The notes under the pieces: model-generated
Told to the model about the DNA's origin: nothing
What the model saw: only the letters and a program-made list of their open reading frames with translations
The model's database searches: none
Part shown: positions 7,585 to 34,077 of the stretch, in pieces
Layout: each line of letters begins with the position of its first letter
Position numbering within the stretch: the first letter of the stretch is position 1
DNA from: Nitrospirota bacterium
GTDB lineage: Bacteria; Nitrospirota; Nitrospiria; Nitrospirales; Nitrospiraceae
NCBI GenBank assembly: GCA_963701855.1
Contig: CAVPBK010000006.1
Coordinates: 832,001-896,000, forward strand
Length of the DNA: 64,000 bases
Direction of reading: 5' to 3'
Made by a program: the position numbers and the translations under genes

Positions 7585-9020
7585 GCGCCGGCAGGTGGTT
7601 TGAGGTTTAACACTAGCATGCGAGGCTCGGTCATATCCTCGATCGCGGCCTGAACCCCTTCACGCCCGACCCCAGAGTCTTTCACACCACCATACGGCAT
7701 GTGGTCGGCACGAAATGTTGGAATCTCGTTTGCCAGCACGGCCCCAACCTCAAGATGCCGAAAGGCATGAAAAATTTTGTTCACATCCTGAGTGAATACT
7801 CCAGCTTGGAGTCCATAGTCAGACTGGTTAAGCGCCGTGATCGCTTCGCTGAAATGCCGGTAAGGGGTCACGGTTACCACCGGTCCAAACACCTCCTGAC
7901 AAGAGACTTTCATCGTTGGCGTGACGTGCGAGAGCACGGTCGCCTCCATCACCGAGCCCATGCGTTTGCCCCCCAGAAGCACACGCGCCCCTTGCGACAC
8001 CGCTTCCCCGACCCACTCCTCCACACGATGGGCCGCGGCCGAATTGATCAGTGGCCCGACCACCGTCGAATCGTCGCTCGGATCACCAGCCTTCAGACGC
8101 GCAACTTGTAACAGAAGTTTCGTGGTGAAGAGGTCCACAATGGAATGATGGATAAATATTCGTTGCACGGAAATACAGGTCTGACCGGCATATCCAAACC
8201 CGCCGACTGCGCAGCGCTGTGCGGCAAGCTCAAGATCGGCATCGGGCTCCACGATGACGCCAGCATTCCCGCCGAGCTCCAACACCACCTTCTTCTTCCC
8301 GCACTTAGCCTTCAGCATCCATCCCACAGCGGCACTGCCGGTAAAGCTCAGGAGTTTAAAACGAGGGTCCACGACAAGCTGTTCTGCCACCGTATTATCG
8401 CAGGGCAGGATGTTGAGTGCGCCGGGAGGAAGCCCAGCCTCCTGAACTACTTCGCCCAAGAGTAACGCGGTCAGGGGTGTCTGTGGCGCCGGCTTGATGA
8501 GAATAGAATTTCCGGCAGCCAGAGCTGGGGCGACCTTGTGGCCCACAAGATTCAGGGGAAAATTGAAGGGAGTGATTCCGAGCACCGGACCAATCGGAAC
8601 CCGACGGAGAATGCCAAGATGGGAGTCCGTCCCCGGCGTCCAATCGAGAGGGATCACCTCGCCAGGAATGCGCTTCGCCTCTTCGGCCGCAACGGTAAAT
8701 GTCTGCACCGCCCGACTGACTTCCCGCTTCGCGTCGGTGATCGGCTTGCCGGATTCAGCCGTCATCAGGCGGGCAAATTCCTCCCGCCGGTCATAAAGTC
8801 CACCTGCGATCTTTTGCAACGCACGATAGCGGGCGTGGGCGGGCAAATTCCCCATCGCTGCAGCAGCATCGACTGTCGATTGAATCGCAGCCTCAGCGTC
8901 CGCGAAACTCGCGCTCGATACCTCGGCGAGTAGCCGCCCTGTAAACGGGTTGTTTACGGGGACAACCGTCTCCCCCTGCCGCCACAGACCTCCAATCAAG
9001 AATGGACGTGGTTCCTGCAC
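7581..9020 (-). CDS. NAD(P)-dependent aldehyde dehydrogenase
   Basis: ITPFNFP, FTGS, LELGGN, AGQTCIS, EVFGPV, PYGGVKDSG. Confidence 0.93.
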   Translation of the reverse strand: MQEPRPFLIGGLWRQGETVVPVNNPFTGRLLAEVSSASFADAEAAIQSTVDAAAAMGNLPAHARYRALQKIAGGLYDRREEFARLMTAESGKPITDAKREVSRAVQTFTVAAEEAKRIPGEVIPLDWTPGTDSHLGILRRVPIGPVLGITPFNFPLNLVGHKVAPALAAGNSILIKPAPQTPLTALLLGEVVQEAGLPPGALNILPCDNTVAEQLVVDPRFKLLSFTGSAAVGWMLKAKCGKKKVVLELGGNAGVIVEPDADLELAAQRCAVGGFGYAGQTCISVQRIFIHHSIVDLFTTKLLLQVARLKAGDPSDDSTVVGPLINSAAAHRVEEWVGEAVSQGARVLLGGKRMGSVMEATVLSHVTPTMKVSCQEVFGPVVTVTPYRHFSEAITALNQSDYGLQAGVFTQDVNKIFHAFRHLEVGAVLANEIPTFRADHMPYGGVKDSGVGREGVQAAIEDMTEPRMLVLNLKPPAGA

Positions 9021-17470: not shown

Positions 17471-20400
17471 ATGGCACAAATCACTGGCTCATCCACGATC
17501 GATTGGTCAGGTATATTGCTTGGACAAGTTAATATTGAGACCGATATCGCCAAGTTCGCCACTCGAGTCGATCAGATAGTTACTGAGTTGGTTAACTTCC
17601 AGGTTACCCCTGTCTTCGTAAGTTCGACAACATTTGTCGGAGACCTTTCTACGGGGGGAAGGCTGACGCTCACGGGTTCAGGGTTCGGCGATGTACTCAA
17701 CTCGTTCGACTTTAAGAATCCCCCGGATGGCACCGGTGAGGTGATCCGGTTCACCGGCACCCTCGATGGCATCGGCAAGGATGTGCTGACCTCCGCCACC
17801 ATCGGATCCACGGGCTTCTCAGAAACAATCAAGGGCAACATCACTATTTCTCCGAACTGGCCGTTTGACTCCGCAAACTATACGGGCACGTTGACCTCGT
17901 TGGTCGTGAAGATTGGCGGTGCCACGGAAATCCTCAGCGGCAACTTCCACCTGACAGGCGACCTCCTCAGCGCGAGCCTGACAGGCACGGTAGCGGGGAT
18001 CTTGGTCGGTTCAGGCGCTAATACAATCAAGATGACGGGCCTGTCGATGTCGCTCGATGTGCTCCAAGCCGCGCTCGGGTCCCCTGAACTGGATTCAGTC
18101 GATGATCTCTTCGCCTTTCTGAATAACCACCTTCCTGGCAACGACACGATTACCTATGCCAACAACTCGAGCGTCGGGATGACGTTTTACGGCGGTGGCG
18201 GCAACGACACGATGACCATTAGCGGACCCAACGCAGATACGCTGAATGGTGGCGTGGGCAACGACACACTGAATGGAGGTGCGGGCAACGATACGCTGCT
18301 GGGTGGGGACGGCAACGATGTTTTCCTGATCAGGTCTGCCACGGATCATGGGGTGGGAGAGGTCATCGACGGGGGTGCGGGCAGCGACGTCATCCGTTTC
18401 ACCAGCACCAACGGGGGTCAGATCCTGACGCTAGCTACGGGCGTCACGACGGTTGAGAGCGTGGTGATCAGCACCGCAGCGGGTGTCACCACCGGCACCA
18501 CTGCGCTCAACGTGGACGCCTCCGCCGTGGGCAACGGCCTGTCACTCACCGGCAACGCAGGTGCGAACAGACTCACCGGTACCAGCACTAACGATACCAT
18601 GAACGGGGGGGCGGGCAACGACACGCTGATCGGCGGTGCGGGGGAGGATACAGTCACCGGCGGCACCGGGAATGACCGCATCGTTATGCTGGTCACCGGG
18701 GGCAATGTGGACGTTGCGGACGGAGTCGCGGGCAACGACACGCTGGCGCTCGTCGGCGCGATCGATGGGGACGGCGTGGTGGTGGTTGATTTGTCCTCGC
18801 TGACCGACCAGGTAACCCACATCGGCACGGTCGATCCTGAGAAGCTGGTCCAAAAGAATTTCGAGAATCTGGATGCCTCGGGGCTTGGCAGTTCAGTGCA
18901 CGCGACCGGCAGTGCCGACGCCAATATCATCATCGGTTCGGACGATACCGACAGCATCAATGGCGGCGCTGGCAACGACACGCTGAATGGGGGCGCAGGC
19001 GACGATACGTTGCTGGGCGGGGACGGCAACGATGTGTTCTTGATCGGGAATGCCGCGGACCATGGCGGGGGCGAGGTGATTGATGGGGGTACGGGCGCTG
19101 ACGTAATCCGCTTCACCAGCATCACCGATGGTGACGGGTTGGTCCTCAGAGCACAGATCACAGGGGTGGAGAGCGTGGTGATTGGCAATGCTGCGGGGCT
19201 GACCACCGACACGACCAGGCTCGACGTGAATGCGATCAGTGTGGGCTACGGCCTGTCTCTCACCGGCAACGCAGGCGATAACCAGCTTGTCGGGACTGAT
19301 TTCAATGACGTGCTCAATGGCGGTGGCGGCGACGACAGCCTCAACGGGGGCTTGGGCACCAATACGCTTATTGGAGGTACTGGGAACGACCTTCTGGACG
19401 GGTCGGGAGGCACAAACACACTGATCGGGGGCGCGGGGAACGACCAATATGTTATCGACTCCTCCACCGACGTGGTCATTGAAGCGCTGAATGCCGGCAC
19501 CGACTTGGTCATCAGTTTTATAGAGACGTGCACCCTTGGGCTCAATGTGGAAAACCTGATTCTGGTTGGCAACAATACTCAAAACGGCACCGGTAATGCG
19601 CTGAATAACATCATTTATGGCAACGTCAGCAGCAACCAGCTCTCCGGGCTCGCGGGCAATGACACGCTGACCGGCGACTGGGGGGAAGACATCGTCGACG
19701 GAGGGGCTGGCAACGACCGCATCGTCATGCTGGTGACTGCTGGGGATGTGGATACTGCGGACGGGGGCACGGGCACCGACACGCTGGTACTCGGCGGCGC
19801 GGTCGGGGGCAACGGCATCGTGGTCGTCAATTTGGTGGCGGGTGCAGGCGACCAGGTCACGTTCAGTGATGATACCCTGGTGCAGAACAATTTCGAGAAT
19901 CTGGATGCCTCGTATCTGTCCCTTGGTGGATCAGTGACTGTCACGGGCAGTGCCGGCGCCAATAGCCTCATCGGCTCAAGAGGCACCGACACCATCAACG
20001 GCGGCGGCGGCAACGACACGCTGGATGGGGGCGCGGGCGACGATACGCTGAATGGGGGGAACGGCAACGATGTCATCTTGATCGGGAATGCTGCTGATCA
20101 TGGCGGGGGCGAGGTAATCAACGGGGGGACAGGCACGGACGTGATCCGCTTCACCAGCACCACCGATGGTGAGGGGTTGGTCCTCAGAGCACAGGTCACG
20201 GGGGTGGAGAGCGTGGTGATCGCGAATGCGGCGGGGCTCACGACCGGCACGACCGCACTCAACGTGGATGCGTCTGCACTCAGTAGCGGGCTCTCCCTCA
20301 CCGGCAACGCGGGCGACAACGTGCTGACCGGCACCGGCGGGAACAACATCCTGAACGGGGGCGCGGGCAACGATACCTTAAATGGTGGAGGCGGCATCAA

Positions 20401-23400
20401 TACGCTGATCGGTGGCACCGGGAACGATCGGTATATTGTGAACTCCCTGACCGACGTGGTGAGCGAAGCGCTGAACGCGGGCACCGACACCGTGGTGGCC
20501 TCCCTCACCACCTACACCCTCACTGCGAATGTAGACAATCTGGAGCTGGCGGGGGCGGCGCTCATCGGCATCGGCAACACGCTCAACAACATCATAACCG
20601 GCAATGACGGCGACAATACGCTCTCCGGGCTCGCGGGCAACGACATCCTCATCGGCGGCGCGGGGCAGGACACGATCAACGGGGGTGTGGGCAACGACCG
20701 CATCGTCATGCTGGTGACCGCTGGGAATGTGGACATCGCGGACGGGGGCGCGGGCATCGATACGCTGGCGCTCGTCGGTGCGGTCGACGGGGACGGCGTG
20801 GTGGTGGATTTCTCCTCGGTGACGGACCAGGTGACCCGTATCGGCGCGGTCGAGCATGAGTCGCTGGTGCAGAAGAACTTTGAGAACCTGGATGCGTCGG
20901 GACTAGGACTGGGCAATACAGTAACTGTCACCGGCAGTGCCGGCGCCAACCTCCTCATCGGCTCGAATGGCGCCGACAGTATCAATGGTGGCGTTGGCAA
21001 CGACATCCTCACCGGCGGGGCCGGCAGCGATATGCTGAATGGCGGAGATGGCAACGATATTGTTATCTGGGATTCAGCTGACACCAGCGTGAGAGGAGGC
21101 GCAGGCACCGATACGCTGCGGATCGACGGCGCAGGTGTGCACGTTAACTTGACGGTAGTTCCGGACGGGGTCATCACGGACATCGAGGTGATCAACCTCA
21201 CCGGCAGCGGCAACAACATTCTCACGCTCGCTTCTGCCGATGTGCTGGCGATTTCTACCACGACCGACACCTTGCGGGTGGACGGCAACAGCGGGGACGT
21301 AGTGAGCGCAGTGCCGGGCTGGGTACGAACCCAAAACATTGTCATCGGCGCACAGACTTATGCCCAGTACACCAACGACGGTGCGCTGCTCCAGGTGGAT
21401 ACCGATATCAACAGTTCCGGAATCGGTGCGATCAGTCTATCGTCGCTTACTGGCGCCAATGGTTTCAAGCTCTTAGGCGCAGGTGCAGGTGACCATTCCG
21501 GCATTTCGGTGAGTTGCGCAGGCGATGTGAACGGCGACGGGTTTGCCGATCTGATCGTCGGGGCATCGGACGCAGCTCCGCACGGCCTCTCTTCCGGGGC
21601 AAGCTACGTGGTGTTTGGCAAAGCAAGCGGCTTTGCCGCGAATATCAATCTCTCGAGCCTCAACGGCACGGACGGTTTCATGTTGTCAGGGATAGCGGCG
21701 AACGACCAATCCGGCATTTCGGTGAGTAGCGCAGGCGATGTGAATGGCGATGGCTTTTCCGATCTGATAATCGGAGCGCCCGGCGCTACCATTGGACAGG
21801 GCGCGAGCTATGTCGTATTCGGCGAAGCGGGTGGCTTTGGCTCGACCATCGACCTGTCCTCTCTGGACGGAATCACCGGCTTCAAGTTGTCAGGGACAGC
21901 GGCGAACGAACAATCTGGCTTCTCGGTGAGCGGCGCAGGCGATGTGAATGGCGATGGATTCGACGACATTGTCATCGGATCGCCCAGCTTCAATAACGCG
22001 AGTTGGGTGGTCTTCGGCAAGGTGAGTGGCTTTCCCACAGCTATTGCCGTATCCGCTCTGAACGGGGTGGGTGGTTTTGGGCTTGGTGAAAACTTTGCGA
22101 CACAATTTGGCCACAGCGTGTCAAGCGCAGGTGACTTCAACGGCGACGGCCTTGACGATGTGATCATTGGTGCGCCCCTTGCTGACGTACCTGTCTTTTC
22201 GGGAGGCTTCCATCCCGACAACGGAGCCGGCTACTTGTGGTTCGGCAAGAGTGGCGGATTTACCATGAACAGTACGAGTCCGTTGAAAGGCACTCTGGAC
22301 AACGATCATCTCGGCTTTTCTGTCAGCGGCGTGGGCGATGTGAATGGTGACGGTTTTGACGACGTGATCCTCGGAGCCATCGGTGCCGATACCAATGGCC
22401 CCGATTCGGGAGCGAGCTACGTTGTCTTCGGTTTCCAGGGGTTAGTGACGCCCGATTTCGAACTCTCGTCACTGAATGGTACCAATGGTTTTAGGATCTT
22501 GGGTGCAGCGGGGGGTGACCAATCCGGTTTCTCAGTGAGCGGCGCTGGAGATGTGAACGGCGACGGGTTTGACGATCTGATCATTGGAGCGCCTGATGCC
22601 GACCCGCACGGCCTCTCTTCCGGGGCAATCTATGTGATATTTGGAAAGCCGGCCGGTTTTTCCGCCAATCTCGATCTTTCCACACTGTCTGACGCTGATG
22701 GATTCAAAATCTCAGGCGCAGCAGTGGGGGACAATTCCGGCTCTTCGGTGAGCAGCGCGGGGGATGTGAACGGCGACGGGTTTGACGATCTCATCGTCGG
22801 GGCACCCTCTGGCGACCCGAACGGCAGCGGTTCCGGGGCGAGCTATGTGGTATTCGGCGCGGACTTCCGCGGCGATATCAACATTGCCGGTACAGCTGGC
22901 GATGACATCCTGACAGGCACGGACGGAGCAGACATCGTATTCGGCGGGCTCGGCAATGACACATTGGACGGCGGCGCGGCCGCTGACTTTCTGAACGGCA
23001 ACGCGGGCGATGACATCTTGATATTTGATGGCCTGGATCGGCGCATTGACGGCGGCAGCGGGACAGACACTTTGTTGTTCAACGGCTCAGGACAAACACT
23101 CGATCTGACCAGTCTCGCTAACAGCAAGATTAACGGTATTGAAACAATCAACCTGACCGGCAGCGGTGATAACGCGTTGATCCTCACCGGCCAGGACTTG
23201 CACGATCTGTCGGACACCAGTAACGCGCTGCGTGTGGATGGTAATCCTGGTGACACCGTGAACGCGGGGTTCGGGTGGGGTTTTGGCAGCAATGTCACCA
23301 TCGGAAATCAGGCCTATGTCCAGTACACCCAGGGAAACGCCGTATTGCGAGTTGACAGCGATATTGCGCTTACGATTGGGAATGCTGTAATTCTCTCGGC

Positions 23401-25381
23401 TTTGAGCGGAACGGATGGTTTCAAGCTCAACGATGCTGTGCTAATCGATTCCTCTGGCCGTTCGGTGAGTGGCGCGGGCGATGTGAACGGTGACGGATTT
23501 GACGACCTTATTGTCGGGGTGAGCGTTGCGAGTCCGAATGGCGACTTGTCGGGACAGAGCTATGTAGTCTTTGGCAACGGCAGTAGCTTTGTGCCGCAAA
23601 TCAATCTCCCGAGCCTCGATGGTACCAACGGTTTTCAACTCTCCGGCGAAGCGGCTGATGACCGCTGTGGCGGCGACGTAAGCTCAGCGGGGGATATTAA
23701 CGGCGACGGCTTTGACGATCTCATCGTCGGGGCAAGTCTCGCCGATTCGAGTGGCAGCAATTCCGGGGCAAGCTACGTGGTGTTTGGCCACGCAGGCGGC
23801 TTTGCGGCGAACCTCGAGCTCTCGAGCCTCAACGGCACGAACGGTTTCAAGCTTTCCGGCGCGGCGGCGGGCGATCGCCTTGGCACAGTCAGCGAGGCGG
23901 GCGATGTCAACGGGGACGGGTTTGACGATCTTATCGTCGGGGCACCCTCTACCTCCCCGAACGGTAGCGCTTCGGGTGCAAGCTATGTGGTATTCGGCAA
24001 GAGCGGTGGCTTTGCATCGAATATCAATCTCTCGAGCCTCGATGGTACCAACGGCTTCAAGCTCTCCGGTATCGCGACGGAGGACATTTCCGGTGCTTCG
24101 GTGAGTGGCGCAGGCGATATGAACGGAGACGGATTCGGCGATATCATCATCGGCGCGCCTGGCGCGGATCTGAACAATCCCGGTCCGGGTTACTTTACCT
24201 TGAGCGGGCAGAGTTATGTGGTGTTCGGCAAAGCCGGAGGGTTTGATGCCAATGTTAACCTTTCTGACTTGAACGGCACCAACGGCTTCAAGTTGAACGG
24301 AGCAAACGGCGACGAATCCGGAAGCTCCGTGAGCGCAGCAGGGGATGTCAACGGCGACGGGTTTACCGATGTCATTATCGGCACAACCCCGGTCGGGACT
24401 AGTGTGGCGGCGAGCTACGTGGTGTTCGGCAAAGGCGCGGGCTTTGCGGAGGACATCGAACTCTCGCTCTTGGATGGTACTGACGGCTTCAAATTGATCG
24501 GTGGGAATGAACTTTCATCCCATTCGGTGAGCAGCGCTGGTGATGTGAACGGCGACGGGTTCGACGATCTCGTCGTTGGTGCATCTCGTGCCGACGCGAG
24601 CGGGATCGACTCCGGTCAGAGCTATGTGGTCTACGGCAAGAGCGGTGGGTTTGGTGCGACTCTCGTCCTGTCGCAGATAACCGAGTCAGATGGCTTTGTG
24701 ATCAACAATACGGCTTTCGGGATCGGCGATGGTTTTGAACTTAACTATTCCGGAAGTTCAGTGAGCGGCTCGGGGGACGTGAATGGTGATGGCTTTGACG
24801 ATCTCCTCGTCAGCGCGCAAGGCGCCAGCTTCGAAATGTTTGGGGGCAACTTTACCAGGTCGGTGGACTTCCTCGGTACGAGCGGCAACGATATCCTTAT
24901 CGGCAATGGTAGCGCCAACATCCTCATCGGCGGCCTGGGCAACGATACCCTTGACGGCGGCGCGGGCGATGACAGGCTAGCGGGCGGGCTCGGCAACGAC
25001 ACCTTCTTCTTCGGTCTCGGCGATGGACAAGATCTAGTGCGGGACAACAGCGGCTCTGCCGACAAGATATCGTTCGACGGGGGCATCAATCCGCTAAATC
25101 TCGTCATCAGTCGGCAAGCCAATGATCTGCGGATTGCAATTCATGGCACATCTGACCAGATCACCGTGCAGAACTGGTACACAAGTTCAGTTAACCGGAC
25201 GGAGACGATCCAAGCAGGCAATGGCGAAGTGTTGCTCAGCACGCAGGTGGATCAGCTCATTCAAGCGATGGCCCAATTCACGACAGATACCGGCCTGAGC
25301 TGGGAGGGTGCTATCGAGAGCGGTGGGACCCCACAACAACAAACGCAGTTCCAGGGCATCCTGGCCGCGAGCTGGCAGTAA
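17471..25381 (+). CDS. Giant RTX (hemolysin-type Ca-binding) protein with two 7-repeat FG-GAP/integrin-alpha-like propellers; probable T1SS-secreted adhesin
   Basis: Many GGxGxDxLx nonapeptides; 2x7 GD(V)NGDGFDD repeats; C-terminal ITVQNWY...VDQLIQAMAQF RTX tail; no signal peptide. Confidence 0.92.
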   Translation: MAQITGSSTIDWSGILLGQVNIETDIAKFATRVDQIVTELVNFQVTPVFVSSTTFVGDLSTGGRLTLTGSGFGDVLNSFDFKNPPDGTGEVIRFTGTLDGIGKDVLTSATIGSTGFSETIKGNITISPNWPFDSANYTGTLTSLVVKIGGATEILSGNFHLTGDLLSASLTGTVAGILVGSGANTIKMTGLSMSLDVLQAALGSPELDSVDDLFAFLNNHLPGNDTITYANNSSVGMTFYGGGGNDTMTISGPNADTLNGGVGNDTLNGGAGNDTLLGGDGNDVFLIRSATDHGVGEVIDGGAGSDVIRFTSTNGGQILTLATGVTTVESVVISTAAGVTTGTTALNVDASAVGNGLSLTGNAGANRLTGTSTNDTMNGGAGNDTLIGGAGEDTVTGGTGNDRIVMLVTGGNVDVADGVAGNDTLALVGAIDGDGVVVVDLSSLTDQVTHIGTVDPEKLVQKNFENLDASGLGSSVHATGSADANIIIGSDDTDSINGGAGNDTLNGGAGDDTLLGGDGNDVFLIGNAADHGGGEVIDGGTGADVIRFTSITDGDGLVLRAQITGVESVVIGNAAGLTTDTTRLDVNAISVGYGLSLTGNAGDNQLVGTDFNDVLNGGGGDDSLNGGLGTNTLIGGTGNDLLDGSGGTNTLIGGAGNDQYVIDSSTDVVIEALNAGTDLVISFIETCTLGLNVENLILVGNNTQNGTGNALNNIIYGNVSSNQLSGLAGNDTLTGDWGEDIVDGGAGNDRIVMLVTAGDVDTADGGTGTDTLVLGGAVGGNGIVVVNLVAGAGDQVTFSDDTLVQNNFENLDASYLSLGGSVTVTGSAGANSLIGSRGTDTINGGGGNDTLDGGAGDDTLNGGNGNDVILIGNAADHGGGEVINGGTGTDVIRFTSTTDGEGLVLRAQVTGVESVVIANAAGLTTGTTALNVDASALSSGLSLTGNAGDNVLTGTGGNNILNGGAGNDTLNGGGGINTLIGGTGNDRYIVNSLTDVVSEALNAGTDTVVASLTTYTLTANVDNLELAGAALIGIGNTLNNIITGNDGDNTLSGLAGNDILIGGAGQDTINGGVGNDRIVMLVTAGNVDIADGGAGIDTLALVGAVDGDGVVVDFSSVTDQVTRIGAVEHESLVQKNFENLDASGLGLGNTVTVTGSAGANLLIGSNGADSINGGVGNDILTGGAGSDMLNGGDGNDIVIWDSADTSVRGGAGTDTLRIDGAGVHVNLTVVPDGVITDIEVINLTGSGNNILTLASADVLAISTTTDTLRVDGNSGDVVSAVPGWVRTQNIVIGAQTYAQYTNDGALLQVDTDINSSGIGAISLSSLTGANGFKLLGAGAGDHSGISVSCAGDVNGDGFADLIVGASDAAPHGLSSGASYVVFGKASGFAANINLSSLNGTDGFMLSGIAANDQSGISVSSAGDVNGDGFSDLIIGAPGATIGQGASYVVFGEAGGFGSTIDLSSLDGITGFKLSGTAANEQSGFSVSGAGDVNGDGFDDIVIGSPSFNNASWVVFGKVSGFPTAIAVSALNGVGGFGLGENFATQFGHSVSSAGDFNGDGLDDVIIGAPLADVPVFSGGFHPDNGAGYLWFGKSGGFTMNSTSPLKGTLDNDHLGFSVSGVGDVNGDGFDDVILGAIGADTNGPDSGASYVVFGFQGLVTPDFELSSLNGTNGFRILGAAGGDQSGFSVSGAGDVNGDGFDDLIIGAPDADPHGLSSGAIYVIFGKPAGFSANLDLSTLSDADGFKISGAAVGDNSGSSVSSAGDVNGDGFDDLIVGAPSGDPNGSGSGASYVVFGADFRGDINIAGTAGDDILTGTDGADIVFGGLGNDTLDGGAAADFLNGNAGDDILIFDGLDRRIDGGSGTDTLLFNGSGQTLDLTSLANSKINGIETINLTGSGDNALILTGQDLHDLSDTSNALRVDGNPGDTVNAGFGWGFGSNVTIGNQAYVQYTQGNAVLRVDSDIALTIGNAVILSALSGTDGFKLNDAVLIDSSGRSVSGAGDVNGDGFDDLIVGVSVASPNGDLSGQSYVVFGNGSSFVPQINLPSLDGTNGFQLSGEAADDRCGGDVSSAGDINGDGFDDLIVGASLADSSGSNSGASYVVFGHAGGFAANLELSSLNGTNGFKLSGAAAGDRLGTVSEAGDVNGDGFDDLIVGAPSTSPNGSASGASYVVFGKSGGFASNINLSSLDGTNGFKLSGIATEDISGASVSGAGDMNGDGFGDIIIGAPGADLNNPGPGYFTLSGQSYVVFGKAGGFDANVNLSDLNGTNGFKLNGANGDESGSSVSAAGDVNGDGFTDVIIGTTPVGTSVAASYVVFGKGAGFAEDIELSLLDGTDGFKLIGGNELSSHSVSSAGDVNGDGFDDLVVGASRADASGIDSGQSYVVYGKSGGFGATLVLSQITESDGFVINNTAFGIGDGFELNYSGSSVSGSGDVNGDGFDDLLVSAQGASFEMFGGNFTRSVDFLGTSGNDILIGNGSANILIGGLGNDTLDGGAGDDRLAGGLGNDTFFFGLGDGQDLVRDNSGSADKISFDGGINPLNLVISRQANDLRIAIHGTSDQITVQNWYTSSVNRTETIQAGNGEVLLSTQVDQLIQAMAQFTTDTGLSWEGAIESGGTPQQQTQFQGILAASWQ

Positions 25382-26764: not shown

Positions 26765-27035
26765 TCACGCAGCTATGATGCGTTGAACGGTGCAATTGCC
26801 TATGCCCAGTTTTCGCGCTATCGCTCGCATACCTCGACCTTGCTTCCGTAAGGCCACCACCTGAGCCTCCACAGCAGCACTTACGCGAGGCCTCCCCAAG
26901 ATCTTGCTCTCTGCCCTGGCGTGCTTCAGACCAACCTTGACGCGCTCCACAATCATGCTGCGCTCAAACTCTGCGAAGACCCCCGGCATTTGAAAGAGCA
27001 ACTTTCCCGCTGGGGTAGTGGTGTCGATGCCCCTT
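26765..27035 (-). pseudogene. C-terminal half of a serine resolvase/invertase
   Basis: GIDTTTPAGKLLFQM.GVFAEFERSMIVERV...GRPR plus HTH; the catalytic N-terminus is absent. Confidence 0.82.
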
Positions 27036-27039
27036 TGTA

Positions 27040-27270
27040 GCCTCTCCGAAGCCAGGAGCATGAGCAGTATCAGGAGCAGTAAAGCAGAAGCAGAAAAAGG
27101 AGAAGGGCCTGTGTCTCCGACGGTCGATGACGGGTTTGAGAAATTTTTGCGATGCTACCCTCGGAGGGACAAAAAACAGGAGGCATGGAAGGCCTGGAAC
27201 CAGCTCTATCCAAACGAGCTACTCGTCCAGACGATTCTTGAGGCCATCGAACGCCAGAATCTCCAACACG
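27040..27270 (+). pseudogene. Fragment of a phage/plasmid replication-protein-like gene
   Basis: FEKFLRCYPRRDKKQEAWKAWNQL resembles the F..FW..YP.K..K..A..AW motif of phage replisome organisers. Confidence 0.5.
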
Positions 27271-27277
27271 TACCGGC

Positions 27278-27631
27278 TCAAAGTCCTGCTATGTCTGTTT
27301 TTATTGGCCGCTTGCGTGGAAATTCCAACAAGGAGGCAAATTGGTCCGGAGAATTATCCGAGGGAAGATAACACAGCCGGATCATGTGTCTGAGACGGAT
27401 AACGTTGAGCTGACTATGACAGGTGTCGATAAGGTCATTTTCCCTGAAAATGAATATCGAATATTCGAACGCTACGGACATGACTTCATGTATTCAGACA
27501 ATGCAGAAAATGCTGCGTTGATTGGTATCGGAGGCTCCTCTAAAGCCTTTCTGGTTTGGAAAGTATATGCCGACGACATGCCGCCTCAGACTGGGAGTAT
27601 CGGGATCCCTGATATTCCAGATCTATCCTAG
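27278..27631 (+). pseudogene. Frameshifted lipoprotein remnant
   Basis: LLCLFLLAAC lipobox in the 27127 frame continues after a shift near 27388 into the 27341-27631 frame. Confidence 0.4.
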
Positions 27632-27711
27632 CTAAGTATCAATTCGCACCGAATAAAGAAACCCGTTAGGCACTATTTAGGCACTGGAGGTTTTCAGGCA
27701 TGCATAAGTGA

Positions 27712-27741
27712 TGGTGGTCCCAACGGGATTTGAACCCGTGT
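27712..27741 (-). repeat. att site: 30-bp duplicate of the tRNA-Glu 3' end
   Basis: TGGTGGTCCCAACGGGATTTGAACCCGTGT identical to 33235-33264. Confidence 0.95.
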
Positions 27742-27861
27742 CTTAACACGACTACGACTTCGCCCTTATTCTTCAGAGGCTTCGAACATTTTATTCAAGT
27801 CAGAAAGGGGTACGACTAAAACAAGAGAGTGTCAGGTCGCATCAAAGATCCCCACGTTGCC

Positions 27862-27945
27862 GCCTAACGTCGTGCGGTGCGGCCGGCCGCAACGGTTGAG
27901 ATGGTGCAACGCTGGCGGCCGGTCCGCACCAGCTACAGGTTAGGT
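27862..27945 (-). other. Integron attC site (cassette 3), 84 bp
   Basis: Minus strand ACCTAAC...GTTAGGC with internal palindrome GTGCGG-CCGGCCGC...GCGGCCGG-CCGCAC. Confidence 0.88.
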
Positions 27946-27950
27946 GCACG

Positions 27951-28451
27951 TCAGTGAAATTGCTGAACAAGCCACCACCCTGCGTGACAGTAGAAGTATG
28001 CGCCGGCCCCATCGTATTCACTTCGAAGAATTGGGCCACTGGTAAAGCTGCTCGCCGGGCCACGTTCGCGAACATTGTCGCGGTAGAAGAACTCACTTAG
28101 CTTCATTCGCTCATCGCGGATAACGGTTAGTCCTCCGGGGTAGTTTTGCCATGAGATTGTGCCCGGGCACTTGTTTGACTGTCCTACGATCACCAGAAGG
28201 TACTTCTCGGGTGCCTTTGGCCTCGTACACCAGAATACAGCACTCTCGTCTCGAGCGCCGGGTAGATAGTCAAGCACGTAAGGCGGGTCAAGCAAACCTG
28301 GACGTTTGAAGAAATCCGTGATTTCGCTGCACCCATGTGTGGTCGCAGCCTCGATCAGCGGTTCCGGTAAGGTCTGCCCATGCGCCACGGTAGCTCCACT
28401 GATCATCGCCAAACTAAGGAGGCCAGCGAGAAAACGTGGGCGCCAAGTCAT
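27951..28451 (-). CDS. Cassette 3 gene: secreted hypothetical protein
   Basis: Signal peptide ending AHG; ATG 13 nt after the GTT crossover; stop abuts attC. Confidence 0.8.
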   Translation of the reverse strand: MTWRPRFLAGLLSLAMISGATVAHGQTLPEPLIEAATTHGCSEITDFFKRPGLLDPPYVLDYLPGARDESAVFWCTRPKAPEKYLLVIVGQSNKCPGTISWQNYPGGLTVIRDERMKLSEFFYRDNVRERGPASSFTSGPILRSEYDGAGAYFYCHAGWWLVQQFH

Positions 28452-28457
28452 ACGTGC

Positions 28458-28527
28458 ACCTAACGTTTGAAATTACCGGCGCTGCGCGGCTTTATCGCGC
28501 AGCGTCCGGTGGAATGAGGGGTTGGCC
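28458..28527 (-). other. Integron attC site (cassette 2), 70 bp
   Basis: Minus strand GGCCAAC...GTTAGGT with palindrome CCGG-CGCTGCGCG...CGCGCAGCG-CCGG. Confidence 0.92.
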
Positions 28528-28547
28528 CTCGCGGCGTACGTAATAGC

Positions 28548-29072
28548 TCACTTCGTGACTTTCAGCCGGGCCACGATAGAAAGTGCTCGCCCAGACACTT
28601 TGTCTTTTACGTTCGCGGTAATCTTGTAGTCACCAACAGGATCAGATTTATCAAAACCTACGGTCAGGCTAGCCAGGCCCAGCTGCAAATGCCGTTGCTG
28701 CATAGGCTTTCCAGACCAGACTGGGCCACCGCCCGCCGGTGTTTTGCTCCCGTCTGGGCCTTCGAGAATGAACTCGGAAACTACGTCGCAGACGCCCCCG
28801 TCATTCGGCGAGCAACCATGAAAAATGAGAAGTGCAGAGACCGACCCGCCGAGACGCACGGTATTGGCAGCACTCAGTTTCGGTGGAGTCTCGGACGAGT
28901 TCCATGTCTGGCGAAACTGACCTTCGTCCGCAGTAAGAACTATGTGAGCACCGAAGTCTCCAGCACTGCGCATGCTCTCAGTATCGGGGAGCAGTTTTCC
29001 AGTTGGATCAATCCATGCGCTCTGAGCAACAAACGGAAGAAGTGCGACGAGCAACGTCAAACACTATTTCAT
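28548..29072 (-). CDS. Cassette 2 gene: secreted hypothetical protein with an in-frame TAG at codon 3 (possible pseudogene)
   Basis: GGAG RBS, then ATG AAA TAG TGT TTG...; the ORF track starts at TTG 29060. Confidence 0.7.
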
Positions 29073-29093
29073 AAGAGAAACTCCAATAGTGAG

Positions 29094-29159
29094 GGCCAAC
29101 GTAAAGTTGAGGGGCGAAGCCACGCAGTGGCGAAGTCCCTCTCGAACGACAGGTTAGAC
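29094..29159 (-). other. Integron attC site (cassette 1), 66 bp
   Basis: Minus strand GTCTAACCTGTCGTTCGAGAGGGAC...GCCCCTCAACTTTACGTTGGCC, a canonical R''-L''-L'-R' layout. Confidence 0.93.
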
Positions 29160-29166
29160 TTATAAC

Positions 29167-29493
29167 TCATAACTCATAACTGATACTAACCTGTTTATTA
29201 GTGATTGTGCTCGATACTACCCCTTGCGATGTAACGTAGAGTTTTTCGCTTTCTAGCTTGCGGCCATCTGCGAACGTTGCCACGATCCAAAGCTGTTTAT
29301 CTCCACCCGAAATATTGAGGCGAACGGATTTATTAGTTGGAATAGTGGCGGTATGTGATTCGCCCACATCAGTATGAGTTTCCACCGATACTGATTCAGA
29401 GCTGGTATTAGCGATTACCGCAACAGGTGACGAGCAAGCACACAGACAGAACGAAAGAGCGATAGCGAGTATGTGAGCAAGAATTCGTTTCAT
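29167..29493 (-). CDS. Cassette 1 gene: hypothetical lipoprotein
   Basis: MKRILAHILAIALSFCLCAC lipobox; AT-richer than its neighbours; ATG 9 nt after GTTAGCC. Confidence 0.82.
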   Translation of the reverse strand: MKRILAHILAIALSFCLCACSSPVAVIANTSSESVSVETHTDVGESHTATIPTNKSVRLNISGGDKQLWIVATFADGRKLESEKLYVTSQGVVSSTITNKQVSISYEL

Positions 29494-29495
29494 AT

Positions 29496-29665
29496 GGCTA
29501 ACTATGTATTATCTGGTTCTGCATAAGATCCCCGTCGTCGTGCGACGCTGGATAAGACCCGTACGATATTCGGGCAGAATCAGAGCATAAGTCCAAGATC
29601 GTTCTCAGGGATTTGTCTTTGCCTCCTTTGCCCATGGGGTCTTATGCGGTTCCGTATAAGACCCT
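29496..29665 (-). other. Putative attI site with upstream direct repeats and a palindrome
   Basis: Non-palindromic ATAATACATAG/TTAGCC core at the head of the array; four ATAAG(A/T)..CC motifs at 29523, 29552, 29587 and 29656; hairpin GGGTCTTATGCGG-TT-CCGTATAAGACCC. Confidence 0.6.
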
Positions 29666-29808
29666 CTGACTTCGAAAGCGTCAGGGGGAGGGAATGGGTG
29701 GGGGTCTGTGTTAACTCTAGAACAGAGCCCTGCCTCGAACGCCTACTTGATATAAGCCACTGCCGAACAGAGATGGCTACGCTGTACAGAGGGAAATCCC
29801 CCGCCCCG

Positions 29809-30042
29809 TTACAGGGTTCGGGCGCAGAACACTTCGTCTTGGCGGAGGGCTTCGAGGGCGGAGGCGGGCACGCTGGTGACGGCAATCGTCTCGCCCAGTG
29901 CGTTGAAGACTTCGATGGAGTACCCCTCTGTGCCATCAGGGGCTATGTGATGGTCTACGAGTTTCACGATGTCGCCACGACGGAGACGATGCTCTGGCAC
30001 TTCACACTTCAGCGCCACATCCGTGTACAACTCAAACTTCAT
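29809..30042 (-). CDS. DUF4926-like small protein (putative antitoxin/immunity)
   Basis: LYTDVALKCEVPEHRLRRGDIVKLVD...YSIEVFNALGETIAV; 4-bp overlap with the upstream gene. Confidence 0.7.
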   Translation of the reverse strand: MKFELYTDVALKCEVPEHRLRRGDIVKLVDHHIAPDGTEGYSIEVFNALGETIAVTSVPASALEALRQDEVFCARTL

Positions 30043-30374
30043 TCGGTCCTCCGCTTGTCTGGAATCAGTGTAACGAACTTCGTGACGCCCGACAAGTGTT
30101 CTGTCATCCAGATGGTGCGAACGGGCAGTGCCACGCCGTTTGAGCCGGTCAGCGTGCCTCGGACTTCATAGTACTGGCCGAATGTGTTTGACTCCAGTCG
30201 TTGTGCCTCCAAAGGCAGGATTTGGGCGCGCAAGTCCCGCAGTAGGTGCCCTGCGTTTTCCCGCTCATATCCTGCTTGTGCCAAAAAAGCCGATTTGTCT
30301 CCGCGCGTTTGCGGCAACAACAAGTACCGCGTCAGTTTGTCTTCCGCGATGGTGGTATCCGGGGGCAGCCTCAT
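30039..30374 (-). CDS. DUF6883-like protein (putative toxin)
   Basis: IAEDKLTRYLL...DKSAFLAQAGY...GQYYEVRGTLTG...VRTIW...FVTLIP. Confidence 0.7.
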   Translation of the reverse strand: MRLPPDTTIAEDKLTRYLLLPQTRGDKSAFLAQAGYERENAGHLLRDLRAQILPLEAQRLESNTFGQYYEVRGTLTGSNGVALPVRTIWMTEHLSGVTKFVTLIPDKRRTE

Positions 30375-30509
30375 ACGTCCTCACCCGCGCAGTATGTCAA
30401 CAGTCCTATGCACAGTCAGCACTGTTGCCACCACCTCTTTCTTGCCCTTCAAGCCCGGCACCGTAGCTTTGTACTCGCACGTGATCATCGTGGGAGACCT
30501 ATCCTATTT

Positions 30510-30594
30510 ACCTACCTGAGAGAGTGCAAGGTTCAGCCAATGGCCCACCTGTAAAGAGTTCGATTCACTCGCAGGAATCCAGCACGGCCTTTAT
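30510..30594 (-). pseudogene. N-terminal relic of a VapC/PIN toxin
   Basis: ATA-K-A-V-L-D-S-C-E-TGA-I-E-L-F-T-G-G-P-L-A overlapping the antitoxin stop; looks like M..VLDS..WIEFF with the start and Trp codons mutated. Confidence 0.6.
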
Positions 30595-30800
30595 GATCGG
30601 TCTTTCTTCTCCCGCAGATCCGTCCTGGACATCCCCTTGAGCGCTCCCTTGAGTGACTTGAGGGGAACTTCCGGCACCAGGGTGATGACACCACCTTTCT
30701 CCACGACGTGAAGATGCTGTCTCGGCCTGAGGTGCAGTTTTTCCCGCACTTCCTTGGGAATTACAATTTGGAACTTCGGTGAGATCGTCGTCGTGGCCAT
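30591..30800 (-). CDS. AbrB/MazE/SpoVT-family antitoxin
   Basis: TTISPKFQIVIPKEVREKLHLRP; AAGGAG RBS. Confidence 0.85.
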   Translation of the reverse strand: MATTTISPKFQIVIPKEVREKLHLRPRQHLHVVEKGGVITLVPEVPLKSLKGALKGMSRTDLREKKDRS

Positions 30801-31127
30801 GGCAGGACTCCTTACCAATTCGTGGGCGATCATTGTTTTGTCATATGTTGCGAGTCAAGGCAAACGATGCTCCTGCGCCGCCTCACAAAATGAACGATCC
30901 CTTACTCAAAGAGGGCTACTTGTCCTTTACTATCCCAAGCTGTCCTCAACTGCCTAATTCCATTCTCCCCCTCTTTGCTCTACGCTCATGATCATGTCGA
31001 GAGTTCAGGCCTGTTCACACGAGCGCGACGGCATGACTACCCCAGCGCACATCAGCGTACATCTGCCTAATTCCCAGGGCAGAATCTCCGACGTAGGGTG
31101 GGAGAACGTTTGAACCAAGGAGGGCCT

Positions 31128-31409
31128 ATGAAGACATCGGATTTGTCGATCAAAGAACTCGCCGCCTTCATTCGCGTGAGTACGGACACCATCCGGCGAG
31201 CGGTTCGCAACGGCGAGATTCCGTCGACAAGGGTCAGGACCGCGTTACGGTTTGATCTGCAGGAAGTCAGCACCTATATGCAGCGGAACGCAGAGGCCAG
31301 GTTTGGGGCACGCTCGACTCGCGCGCGGGGCGGCACTGCCGGCCGCGCGCAGGCTGATCAGCCCCCTGCTGGTAAAACGGGGGCGCAATTTCCAGGCAAC
31401 GGATCATGA
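31128..31409 (+). CDS. Excisionase-like HTH protein
   Basis: LSIKELAAFIRVSTDTIRRAVRNGEIPSTRVRTALRFD; AGGAGG RBS. Confidence 0.82.
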   Translation: MKTSDLSIKELAAFIRVSTDTIRRAVRNGEIPSTRVRTALRFDLQEVSTYMQRNAEARFGARSTRARGGTAGRAQADQPPAGKTGAQFPGNGS

Positions 31410-31855
31410 TTATTTCCAACCGATTAGACAGCAACCCTGTTCCTCAGAGAGTACTCGCATCAGGACATGAGACCTCCGTAGAACTGCGCCAGCAAGTCTG
31501 TCATCGGTGTGGAAAGGTCTGGTGGCCTCGTCGCCCCAAAAAACCAGCCCGATGTCCCGGTTGCAAAAGTCCCTACTGGGATAGGCCCCGCCGCCTAAAA
31601 CACCCCATCATGCCCTTGAACGGACCCGTGAGCCAAGGAGCACTGGCGAAGTCTTTACGTCGGAAAATGGCAAGGACCCTTGGGGGAGGGCACGAGCACG
31701 GGAAAGATGCCGAGGACCGCTCCTTGGCAACAGCACTTCACGTGCTCAAGGAGATGAAAGCAGCCGGAAAGACCTGGCAGGAGATGGGAGAACGCATGGA
31801 ACGGGAATTCGGCGCGAGCCTGGAGAAGGATCAACTGAAAGCGCTCGTCCGATAA
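31406..31855 (+). CDS. Zn-ribbon hypothetical protein
   Basis: CHRCGKVWWPR...CPGCKSPYWD; ATGA overlap with the HTH gene. Confidence 0.72.
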   Translation: MIISNRLDSNPVPQRVLASGHETSVELRQQVCHRCGKVWWPRRPKKPARCPGCKSPYWDRPRRLKHPIMPLNGPVSQGALAKSLRRKMARTLGGGHEHGKDAEDRSLATALHVLKEMKAAGKTWQEMGERMEREFGASLEKDQLKALVR

Positions 31856-32211
31856 GCACTCAATTCCCTGCCCCCCACCACCTCCGGGGCAGGGATCAAT
31901 CCGAGTCGCGGGGCGGTGCACATCGCAGCGGGCGGGCCTGGAAGGTGGCAGGAAGGCTGGCCCGATGCTCTGTCGCGCCGCGCTGCCACTAAAGAGACGC
32001 TGGCGTGCCGACGCGAGCGCAGAAGGGGGTTCGGGGGTGTCGTACGACTCCCCCGATTTCGCATACGGCCAGAGAACGGATGACGGACATGGAATCGCTC
32101 ACACAAGACCGTTGCGAATTGCTCCCGGCCTCGCTTGACGGCTGGATGGTACCTCCGCATACTCTCCCCCGGCGAAGTCGTGGTCGTGGCAGGGACCGGA
32201 GAGGCAATGCC

Positions 32212-33153
32212 ATGACGTAACAGTTAGTAGATCTCGTAGAGCAGTTTTGTCAGTACCAACTCAAACGGCGCGGCAAAACGGAAGGAGGGGTGCAAAGCTA
32301 TCGCTGGGTGCTCGAACAGTTTCTAATTTTTGTCAGATCCCGACATGGACGGTTGGCTCGCGCCACTGACCTCACGCTATCATCGATTCAGATGTGGATG
32401 GACGACATGGCTAGCTGTGATCTTGCCCTGAGTACGATGCGTTCGCGTCAATCGACGCTGTCGAGCTTCTGTGGTTGGCTCGTGAAGCGGGGCGTGCTTC
32501 AGGCGAATCCCGTCGCGGCGATGGACCGACCACCGCACCGAATGGAACCACCGCGACAAGTGCCGACACCGGCCCTCATGGATGCATTGATCGCTGCGGC
32601 TCAGCAACGCCAGCGGCCTCGTGATATCGCCATCTTTCTGATCATGCGGTACACAGGGATGCGGCGCGAGTCGGTCGCGACGCTTCAGGTGCGACACCTC
32701 GACGGCACTTGGGGCCTTCGGCGGGTACGCGTCAAAGGCGGACAGACGCGGGACATTCCGTTGCCGGAAAGCGTGATGACGTATCTCCATACCTACGTCG
32801 AACGGCTGACTGACGCCATGGGTCAGATCGGGCTGGAGACCCCGCTATTCTGGTCTCTGTGGGGACGGCGAACTGTTGGGAAGAGTCGAGCACCGATGCA
32901 GGGGAAAAATATCTGGCGGCTCTGCAAAACCTATGGGCGGCTCATTGGGTACCCGATGCTGAAACCTCATGATTTGCGTCATGGGGTCGCGATGGAGGTG
33001 CTGGAGCAACAGCATGACTTGGAGCAGGTTCGAGCCTTGCTCGGGCATTCGCGCATCGACACGACCCAAATCTACACCATGATTCGGCCTACGCGGTTGA
33101 AGCAAGTGGTGTCGTTTTATGAAGAGCCGGCGAGACGGATGCTGACGAGTTAG
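32212..33153 (+). CDS. Tyrosine recombinase (XerC-like phage integrase) with an in-frame TAA at codon 3
   Basis: SAM-like N domain, YTGMRR, VKGG, HDLRH, LLGH..IDTTQIY. The RBS-preceded ATG 32212 is in frame with GTG 32290 but is followed by ACG TAA. Confidence 0.88.
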
Positions 33154-33234
33154 AGCAGAGGTGCCAGTCCATGTTTAAGGACCAACCCCAATGGTCCTCA
33201 AACATGAATGTAAAAATACTTCGTAAAAACAATG

Positions 33235-33312
33235 TGGTGGTCCCAACGGGATTTGAACCCGTGTTTAAGCCTTGAGAGGGCTCCGTCCTAGGCCAGGCTA
33301 GACGATGGGACC
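33235..33312 (-). tRNA. tRNA-Glu (CTC)
   Basis: GGTCCCA...GAGCC-CTCTCAA-GGCTT...GGTTCAAATCC...TGGGACCACCA cloverleaf with CCA. Confidence 0.97.
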
Positions 33313-33540
33313 GGACCATCAAAGATGCGTGTTCAACATGACACGCTAGCACAGGGGCTTTTCATTTTTCAATTCCTAAAGATTCTGAACAGTTCTCAGA
33401 TTTCAACTCACAAGTTCATCCGTGACTTGACAGAGACGGCGGTATAGCCTACCTTGCAAAAACACACGTTGCGGGCCTCTGGGAGGGGAAATTCTTCTAT
33501 CGTCGGCCCCCTCTTCTCATCAGCAGACGCATGGTAGAGC

Positions 33541-34077
33541 ATGTACAATCCGCTCCAAATCAAGGCTATCGGCATCACAGACTCTCCGGAACTGATCGAC
33601 ATCGAGAAGCCCGAACAGGGCCTTGAGCTGCATGTCGGCTCGAATGTTTTTCGAAATACGAACGGCGTCGTCAAGCTTCAAGGCAAGGAGCAGATGGTAT
33701 TGGAAGCACAGTCCCAGCCATTGGCGTTGCTCTTGACGATGGACCTATACGATGAGCAGGGAACCCGCGTCGGCCATATCCGACGGAATGCGCTCTCGGC
33801 ACATAGCGCGGGCCGTTTCACCATCAACGTAAAGGCCGGCGACGAGACAACCCCGGATGACCCCCCTTCAGTTACCGTAGCAGACCGAACAACCGGACAC
33901 ACGGTGTTCGAAGCCTGCCTCATGCAGAGAAGAAAAATTCGCATAATCGTGGGGCACTTTTATAGCCATAAGGGCGAATTAGTCACCGTCAGCCCACACT
34001 ACTGCCGCATCGGCACCGGTCTCACTCTATTCGGCGATGTAGCGGAAAGCCGTGGCAGCGCGGCAGCAATCGGTTAA
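33541..34077 (+). CDS. Hypothetical protein
   Basis: 178-aa beta-rich ORF with core-like codon usage. Confidence 0.7.
   Translation: MYNPLQIKAIGITDSPELIDIEKPEQGLELHVGSNVFRNTNGVVKLQGKEQMVLEAQSQPLALLLTMDLYDEQGTRVGHIRRNALSAHSAGRFTINVKAGDETTPDDPPSVTVADRTTGHTVFEACLMQRRKIRIIVGHFYSHKGELVTVSPHYCRIGTGLTLFGDVAESRGSAAAIG

Follow-up and report, generated by a model that had tools for sequence, protein, structure and literature searches.

Clusters of attC sites that lack an integron integrase (IntI) are numerous, and both their origin and their activity are debated. Such clusters, named CALINs (Cury et al. 2016, PMC4889954; IntegronFinder 2.0, PMC9024848), are treated in the first of these papers as possible products of intI loss, secondary-site insertion or rearrangement, with four possible origins listed, and mobilisation of their cassettes appears there as speculation only; attI is described as unknown for most integrons and hence not searchable, and IntegronFinder does not seek it for most (PMC4889954). 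For complete genomes, the results that IntegronFinder 2.0 gives for the phylum comprise two CALINs, both in Candidatus Nitrospira inopinata (PMC9024848). Atypical integrons of the Treponema denticola type, described as complete and chromosomal, have their intI transcribed towards attI (PMC3607928), and IntI can reportedly insert cassettes at genome sites outside att sites (preprint 10.1101/2022.09.11.507474). The locus described here lies in a 64-kb stretch (the window, meaning the whole of the DNA analysed) in contig C6 of a Nitrospira genome of 4.30 Mb (15 contigs, 97% complete) and is a variant of the CALIN and of the island-borne integron, not a new system: what appears to be an integron fragment, with a complete attI and three cassettes inserted at its G/TT crossover point and intI missing, occupies the far end of a 5.5-kb element at a tRNA-Glu gene.

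What kind of system is this? With a CALIN the locus shares three attC-bounded cassettes of unknown function, no intI within 4 kb (the attC cluster being called with a home-made model, R1, described below) and a genome without IntI; unlike a CALIN, it retains a recognisable attI, sits in a tRNA-integrating element and has an empty copy of the same attI platform, or pad, in a sister element. The attI can be recognised because that of the family is definable from intI-linked loci. Measured against a complete integron, an attI at the array head and same-orientation, attC-bounded cassettes are present, and IntI with its additional domain is absent. As in the Treponema denticola type, intI, attI and cassettes of Nitrospiraceae integrons are co-directional, with attI a few tens of bases past the intI stop, and the window's attI is of this kind; the Treponema integrons are complete, whereas the window has no intI. 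Mobile integrons of classes 1–5 differ in having an intI of one of these classes on a transposon or plasmid and, usually, resistance cassettes; here no such intI is present and the cassettes match no family. Integron-carrying genomic islands are known as well, for example SGI1 with its class 1 integron. In islands of that type the integron is complete, belongs to class 1, derives from a transposon and comes with intI1 and resistance cassettes; ours is likewise a site-specific island with its own non-IntI tyrosine integrase and an integron as cargo, but it measures 5.5 kb and holds an environmental integron with no intI and with cassettes of unknown genes. To small tRNA islands it is tied by an integrase next to the tRNA, a repeat of the tRNA 3′ end, an Xis-type helix-turn-helix (HTH) protein, toxin–antitoxin genes, variable cargo, variable presence and tandem arrays; unlike them, it has no relaxase, origin of transfer or transfer genes that we could recognise among the open reading frames (ORFs) scanned in the element. 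In a non-exhaustive literature search we met no earlier account of a tRNA-integrating island that bears an attI platform without intI, or of a single orphan attI in both empty and loaded form.

R1 is a covariance model with a structure set by hand, built from seven attC sites of IntI-linked arrays in only two genomes (G158 and G173) and from none in the window's own genome; one mis-bounded seed (G061_1) was dropped. Run over the window with filters off, it returned exactly three sites at E<1, all on the minus strand, and nothing else, each site falling in the gap that separates an ORF's stop codon from the start codon of the following ORF (Table 1). Of the 7 positions of the R″ box, 6, 7 and 7 (cassettes 1, 2 and 3) match the 5′ box of the cassette to which the attC belongs, and 5, 4 and 6 match the box now adjacent; the first six bases of each cassette pair with its own attC. 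Cassettes that had passed through a circular form opened at G/TT should show this pattern. Because this crossover signature is joined by an uninterrupted copy of the same attI in a sister element (G032, below), the comparison of DNA shows three genuine cassettes that IntI-type attI × attC recombination has placed, in keeping with the three cassettes of an earlier sequence-only reading of this stretch. Their ORFs gave zero family matches in Pfam, PADLOC and PHROGs, and the sole NCBIfam match is sub-threshold (the 108-aa ORF against TIGR03042, 17.9 bits with a cut-off of 106.9). PADLOC, run on 7 proteins, had no hit for any of them. No DNA match to the cassettes was found in any of 25 loci that carry the element's integrase; across the genus (84 other genomes), the attC of cassette 2 was the sole part with matches. 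R1 replaced an energy-only search, which had caught only the strongest hairpin and missed real sites; a genome-wide constrained-fold scan serves as a lead only, towards other attC-like sites, and MAFFT was unable to align long and short attC sites jointly. The stretch upstream of cassette 1 had seemed to resemble the one behind the last attC, but this resemblance was rejected as not significant (score 22, with a shuffle mean of 17.4 and maximum of 25).

The attI-like site ahead of the array, also picked out by that reading, is real: a DNA profile made from the regions 3′ of eight full-length intI genes matches 29496–29667 on the minus strand over nearly its whole length (E 2e-13). The underlying architecture, shared by 8 of 18 intI loci, runs from a CTTATGCGGATC-type palindrome through a spacer of ~100 nt and two further motif copies to the crossover box. 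In subtype, the attI of the window comes nearest to two others, one following the full intI of G095 and one following an intI relic in G009. Where, then, should intI be? The divergent placement that had been implied does not fit the relatives: Nitrospiraceae arrays lie on the side opposite to the divergent one, and when the divergent side of three intI genes was searched for cassettes, none were there. Because attI starts shortly after the intI stop in intI-linked loci, the gene is expected on the cassette strand, ending near 29690, a place upstream of attI that is filled by DUF4926 and DUF6883 genes. Using tblastn with three IntI proteins, we found no intI relic in 29500–31100 (all E>0.1) and none in 27000–34000 bar the box II region of the Xer-like integrase.

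The array lies inside an element, 121 nt from its distal repeat. This repeat copies the 3′ end of tRNA-Glu(CTC), its last 30 nt, at 30 of 30 positions (27712–27741 against 33235–33264) and brackets 5.5 kb; allowing up to three mismatches, it is matched twice in the window, at both borders, and 0 of 100 shuffles gave any match. A tyrosine integrase beside a tRNA marks tRNA-integrating elements when the tRNA 3′ end is repeated at their other border, and the 5.5-kb unit, with both of these, an Xis-type HTH gene, a Zn-ribbon gene and repeat-bounded relatives, is a small integrative element of a Nitrospira family that inserts at the 3′ end of tRNA-Glu(CTC). The tRNA duplication and the compact element proposed from the letters of the window are thereby both borne out.

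Table 1. Features of the tRNA-Glu element and its cassette array (window positions).
Feature	Position	Strand	Details
Distal direct repeat, copy of the last 30 nt of tRNA-Glu; far attachment-site border	27712..27741		exact 30/30 match; bounds relatives' elements too
Conserved distal arm of the element family	27742..27826		79–95% identity to relatives' arms
Flank to the right of the attI crossover, today located behind the last attC	27827..27861		common to G032, G240/L100 and the G008 relic
attC of cassette 3	27862..27945	-	R″ ACCTAAC, R′ GTTAGGC; R1 20.0 bits, E 0.011; hairpin -31.3 kcal/mol, z -4.4
Cassette 3, 596 nt	27868..28463	-	ORF 27951–28451, 166 aa; signal-peptide-like N-terminus; no known family
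attC of cassette 2	28458..28527	-	R1 37.7 bits, E 4e-7; 94% identical attC in G009
Cassette 2, 636 nt	28464..29099	-	ORF 28548–29060, 170 aa; no known family
attC of cassette 1	29094..29159	-	R1 31.9 bits, E 1.2e-5
Cassette 1, 402 nt	29100..29501	-	ORF 29167–29493, 108 aa; hydrophobic, cysteine-rich N-terminus; no known family
attI	29496..29703	-	palindromic CTTATxCGGAAC-type motif 29640–29667, two more motif copies, crossover box GTTAGCC 29496–29502
DUF6883 (30039–30374) and DUF4926 (29809–30042) pair	29809..30374	-	Pfam E 1e-14 and 3e-10; cassette strand; in the expected place of intI
AbrB/MazE-type antitoxin, no adjoining toxin gene	30591..30833	-	Pfam/NCBIfam scans
Excisionase-family HTH protein, candidate recombination directionality factor	31098..31409	+	TIGR01764 42.4 bits (cut-off 28.8); PF12728; phrog_66; kept in relatives
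Zn-ribbon backbone protein	31406..31855	+	CxxC...CxxC; weak PF14369 match under cut-off; 90–94% nt identity in relatives
XerC/D-like tyrosine integrase frame	32212..33153	+	TAA at 32218–32220 (codon 3); first later start GTG 32290
tRNA-Glu(CTC)	33235..33312	-	3′ 30 nt (33235–33264) = proximal repeat

How widely is the pad shared among elements of this family? Of 36 genomes sampled in the genus, 11 have the integrase, which is also present in 25 loci of the species collection, and presence at the same tRNA-Glu site varies between related genomes. Ten further complete elements with the same repeat at tRNA-Glu (G012, G022, G017, L093, L097, L100, L103, L107, L108 and L113; 4.7–8.8 kb) have in common the conserved distal arm and the genes for integrase, Zn-ribbon protein and HTH protein, and differ in cargo; element copies also stand in tandem at tRNA-Glu (L107, 1–603; L108, 2501–2782), where an integrase 3′ end is followed by the repeat and then by the arm belonging to the next copy. 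Neither attC (R1, filters off) nor attI (profile) was found in eight of the ten, which makes 8 of 11 complete elements without a pad once the window is counted, and the right-hand attI flank was not found in G022, G017 or G012. The same holds for attC and attI in L023 (G027), whose distal border was not located. Because eight complete elements have no attC or attI, the integron part is the cargo of a minority of elements and no feature of the backbone. An element with a full intI was found neither among the 25 integrase loci nor in searches of the genus; a full gene in relatives between 29665 and 31100 had been named as a sign of simple deletion.

Two sister pads carry the argument. In G032 (contig C212), the order from the flank is flanking genes, repeat, arm, attI, MazF and MazE. 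Its attI is 88% identical to the window's over 209 nt (29495–29703) and continues without a break into what lies beyond the last attC of the window: both window junctions are here fused at G/TT, with 0 cassettes. The repeat recurs 1.16 kb beyond, 370 nt short of the contig end. In G240, whose element lies on one 4805-nt contig (L100, the same contig as L118), the whole element reads integrase, Zn-ribbon, HTH, two small genes (85 and 134 aa, which we take for a putative toxin–antitoxin pair), intI end, attI, two cassettes, right flank and arm, the last two being the same as the window's. The intI end consists of the last 30–31 nt with the stop and aligns with all four intI loci tested; the attI is degenerate and of another subtype (profile E 4e-20), and the cassettes, of 243 and 85 aa, are unrelated to the window's and have weak attC sites (16.5 and 18.0 bits). 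G008 retains a decayed copy of the pad end with the right flank, and L093 has three attC sites near its distal end, with another arm type and no attI found by the profile, which may be a separate acquisition. The pad is hence met empty (G032), with two cassettes (G240) and with three (window), and no full intI in any. Homologous elements with the same backbone, other cassettes and no intI, as the sequence-only reading foresaw, do exist, but the pad itself is missing from most members of the family.

Which enzyme could act on the pad today? That reading had an IntI elsewhere in the same genome load it, and here it failed: none of 19 weak matches to TIGR02249 in the window's genome reaches the cut-off of this integron integrase model. 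What tblastn finds are two C-terminal intI relics (C6:756709–756876 and C6:177955–178097), the first followed by attI, a 283-aa cassette and attC sites. Because this relic still precedes attI, cassette and attC sites, the lineage must once have possessed integrons whose enzyme later disappeared. An interruption also affects the integrase of the element itself. Its TAA, which is CAA in G017, is the third codon from the ATG that opens the conserved N-terminus; starting at the GTG would shorten the protein by ~26 residues, and no second integrase copy was found in the genome (1 match). With its own integrase interrupted, the element is probably no working vehicle now, at odds with the idea of a vehicle that moves cassettes between genomes.

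Taking these observations together, we think it likely that the window holds an integrase-less integron remnant, a CALIN keeping its attI on a tRNA-Glu island, in which the pad came from an intI–attI unit, part of the turnover may have taken place in trans after intI loss, and the array is frozen today. The pad would descend from an intI–attI unit because 30 nt from the end of intI survive in the G240 sister element; the capture may have been of a whole integron that later lost intI or of a fragment already without it. At least part of the cassette turnover would have followed intI loss, through an IntI that acted in trans and came from a different integron, present in an ancestor or an earlier host. 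This is suggested by the window and G032, which share the left edge of the attI module (window 29703), with no intI relic and with unrelated upstream genes (DUF4926 and MazF, respectively), yet hold 3 and 0 cassettes. A single loss of intI, followed by cassette gain and loss through trans-supplied IntI, may be the simplest account, and we put it somewhat below even odds, since modules may be swapped by homologous recombination and the relatives are all contigs of metagenome-assembled genomes; loading in trans, which the sequence-only reading had put forward, is in this sense suggested and not demonstrated. The array is probably frozen today because the genome has no intact IntI and the element's integrase has an early stop.

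Alternatively, there may have been no action in trans at all: every element would have started with a complete integron and used its own IntI to load the cassettes, with separate, later deletions removing intI from each lineage. We regard this as possible, though clearly the less probable course. Deletion of intI, already considered as an alternative when the stretch was first read, has gained from the 30 nt left in G240, and C-terminal relics are common, with fragments only in 8 of 85 genomes of the genus and two in the window's own; intI loss is also among the published proposals for the origin of CALINs (PMC4889954). On the other hand, the relic-free left end that the window and G032 have in common is easier to understand as one loss before the cassettes diverged, and an element still carrying a full intI is what the 25 integrase loci and the genus searches failed to produce.

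The picture of a working vehicle, whose pad currently receives cassettes through an IntI gene located elsewhere in its genome and which then moves cassettes between genomes, fares worse, and we consider it unlikely. It would readily explain unrelated sets of 0, 2 and 3 cassettes in three elements as well as the shared intI-less edge of attI, and IntI does exist in the genus, exceeding the cut-off in 6 of 85 genomes. Yet the window's own genome has no intact IntI despite its 97% completeness, G032 and G240 have no IntI match at E≤1e-25, the integrase is stopped at codon 3 with no second copy to stand in, and the pad is absent from most complete elements.

Could the element's recombinase, perhaps with the Zn-ribbon or the HTH protein, recombine attI and attC itself and thus constitute a self-contained new integron? 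IntI is reported to descend from Xer-like recombinases (PMC4792948), and the operon does lie in the same element as the array. The ORF (32290–33153, plus strand) matches PF00589 (E 5e-23), and its best models are XerC (TIGR02224, 134 bits) and XerD (128 bits). TIGR02249 gives 52.1 bits against a cut-off of 265, and only at profile positions 260–310, the last 50 residues, while NF011946, used here to test for a mobile integron (classes 1–5), gives 34.5 bits against 435. With the IntI-specific region missing too, the enzyme is XerC/D-like and no IntI, as the sequence-only reading had stated. Integrases at the same tRNA in relatives are 91–97% identical in protein (93% for that of G012, stop aside). 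Above all, the recombinase is an improbable agent because near-identical copies (86–97% nt identity) sit in eight complete elements without attI or attC; moreover, the window's type of attI follows bona fide intI genes elsewhere, and the integrase lies 2.5 kb from the array, next to the tRNA as island integrases do, and is interrupted. We give this idea very little credence. Least probable by far is an ordinary chromosomal CALIN that happens to lie between a tRNA and a chance repeat, outside any island: orphan attI sites with cassettes do occur at many chromosomal places in the genus, but the two 30-nt repeat copies are identical and homologous elements have this repeat at their borders in at least ten other genomes, the array lies within the borders, and the recurrence of the attI-to-arm junction in G032, G240 and G008 already contradicts it.

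Several points weigh against our reading of a remnant with partial turnover in trans. The junction in G032 stands in a 31.8-kb contig of a metagenome-assembled genome that ends near the second repeat, so that the integrase context is not visible, and a chimeric assembly of this contig is possible. The left halves of attI in the window and G032 on the one hand and in G240 on the other belong to different subtypes, and the pads may thus be two acquisitions rather than one lineage. R1 and the attI profile are home-made from self-picked seeds and stand in for the models of IntegronFinder, and the third attC scores 20 bits and fails E 1 in a genome-wide R1 search. No cassette promoter was found: a consensus scan gave 4 promoter-like sites where 2.5 are expected, none of them upstream of attI on the cassette strand, and a terminator scan was likewise no better than chance; it is possible that transcription reads into the cassettes from DUF6883/DUF4926, which have the same orientation. 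In four soil metagenome runs (four studies, one of them possibly that of the source sample), the contigs, which hold near-identical pieces of the array and its junctions (for example 28649–29624 and 29615–31882 in X1, 29258–29632 in X3 and 27747–27979 in X4), show no alternative joined forms and no joints of excision or circularisation over 27600–33400, but such contigs lose rare variants, and the absence of joints is no argument against heterogeneity. Two single-contig loose ends within attC sites (X2 at 27901 and X4 at 28477) could reflect these cassettes in a different context or in a different organism; no conclusion is drawn from them.

Further features of the element and its surroundings deserve mention. 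Toxin–antitoxin relics had been listed for the element. Its AbrB/MazE antitoxin has no toxin gene beside it; the DUF6883/DUF4926 pair looks intact and no relic. In L093, a 123-aa gene, a PIN toxin by the look of its sequence, follows directly behind the homologous antitoxin, and in the window the toxin gene seems to have been deleted. The window has a 216-nt gap (30375–30590) at that place, and just upstream of DUF6883 there is a 7-bp inverted repeat with TTGACA. Beyond the distal repeat, a 98-aa C-terminal fragment of a serine recombinase/resolvase (26765–27061, minus strand), in which only positions 100–143 of the Pfam Resolvase profile plus an HTH are matched, may be the remnant of another mobile element at the same hotspot. 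A 2636-aa, highly repetitive, Gly/Asp/Asn-rich protein, by eye with putative calcium-binding and FG-GAP-type repeats, is encoded at 17471–25381 (plus strand).

Other integron remains are scattered over the same genome. The degraded integron at C6:754530–756876, 76 kb upstream of the window (locus L007, 755221–758328), has an attI with a profile E of 1e-35 and two attC sites (43.3 and 29.7 bits), and the 5′ box of its 283-aa cassette agrees by eye with its own attC at 7 of 7 positions. The relic at C6:177955–178097 consists of two pieces flanking a short gap, with 64–77% identity to IntI residues ~284–343, and no attI motif was seen by eye in the 250 nt behind it. Orphan attI cores lie at C6:1234083–1234104 (L040, ~8083–8104), a 22-nt exact copy of the window's attI/cassette junction between ORFs of 200 and 70 aa, and at C6:634620–634703 and C14:90616–90690, both partial matches adjoining attC-like sites. 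More attC-like sites by R1 (24–39 bits) at C13:80065–81557, C14:43157–43253, C14:91496–91586 and C9:8745–8807 are small CALINs or lone attC sites.

Is the loose attI of the window an isolated case? DNA like it is present in 36 of 85 genomes of the genus, the window's own counted, and an IntI over the cut-off in the 6 named above, with fragments only in eight more; in the wider family, IntI exceeds the cut-off in 17 of 151 sampled genomes and is matched at E≤1e-40 in 27 (one unpublished genome, G066, included). Among 29 other attI loci (L058–L086, taken with 1.5-kb flanks; some matches span only the last 60–100 nt of attI), 14 have same-strand attC downstream and one an intI relic upstream. A scan of 35 proteins encoded upstream at 26 of the 29 loci gave no match to a recombinase family; among these proteins are squalene/phytoene synthase (2 loci), a PEP-mutase-linked transferase (2 loci), a glycosyltransferase, MoaC and several toxin–antitoxin pairs. 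The orphan sites thus sit immediately after housekeeping or toxin–antitoxin genes. Orphan attI sites thus seem common in Nitrospira. It is conceivable, although at present we would rather bet against it, that attI sites set loose from intI are landing pads served in trans, with a few IntI-bearing genomes or transient elements loading many of them and the island ferrying loaded pads between genomes. If true, cassettes would travel by a route separate from transposon- or plasmid-borne mobile integrons.

What does this mean for Nitrospira? In a nitrite-oxidising soil member of the genus, an integron platform is found as the cargo of a small tRNA island. Three natural states of one pad with no adjoining intI provide comparative evidence on whether IntI acts in trans on orphan platforms, and the attI and attC sequences are concrete substrates for a recombination assay. 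Together with the abundant orphan attI sites of Nitrospira, this series of pads makes the question of a trans-acting IntI a testable one.

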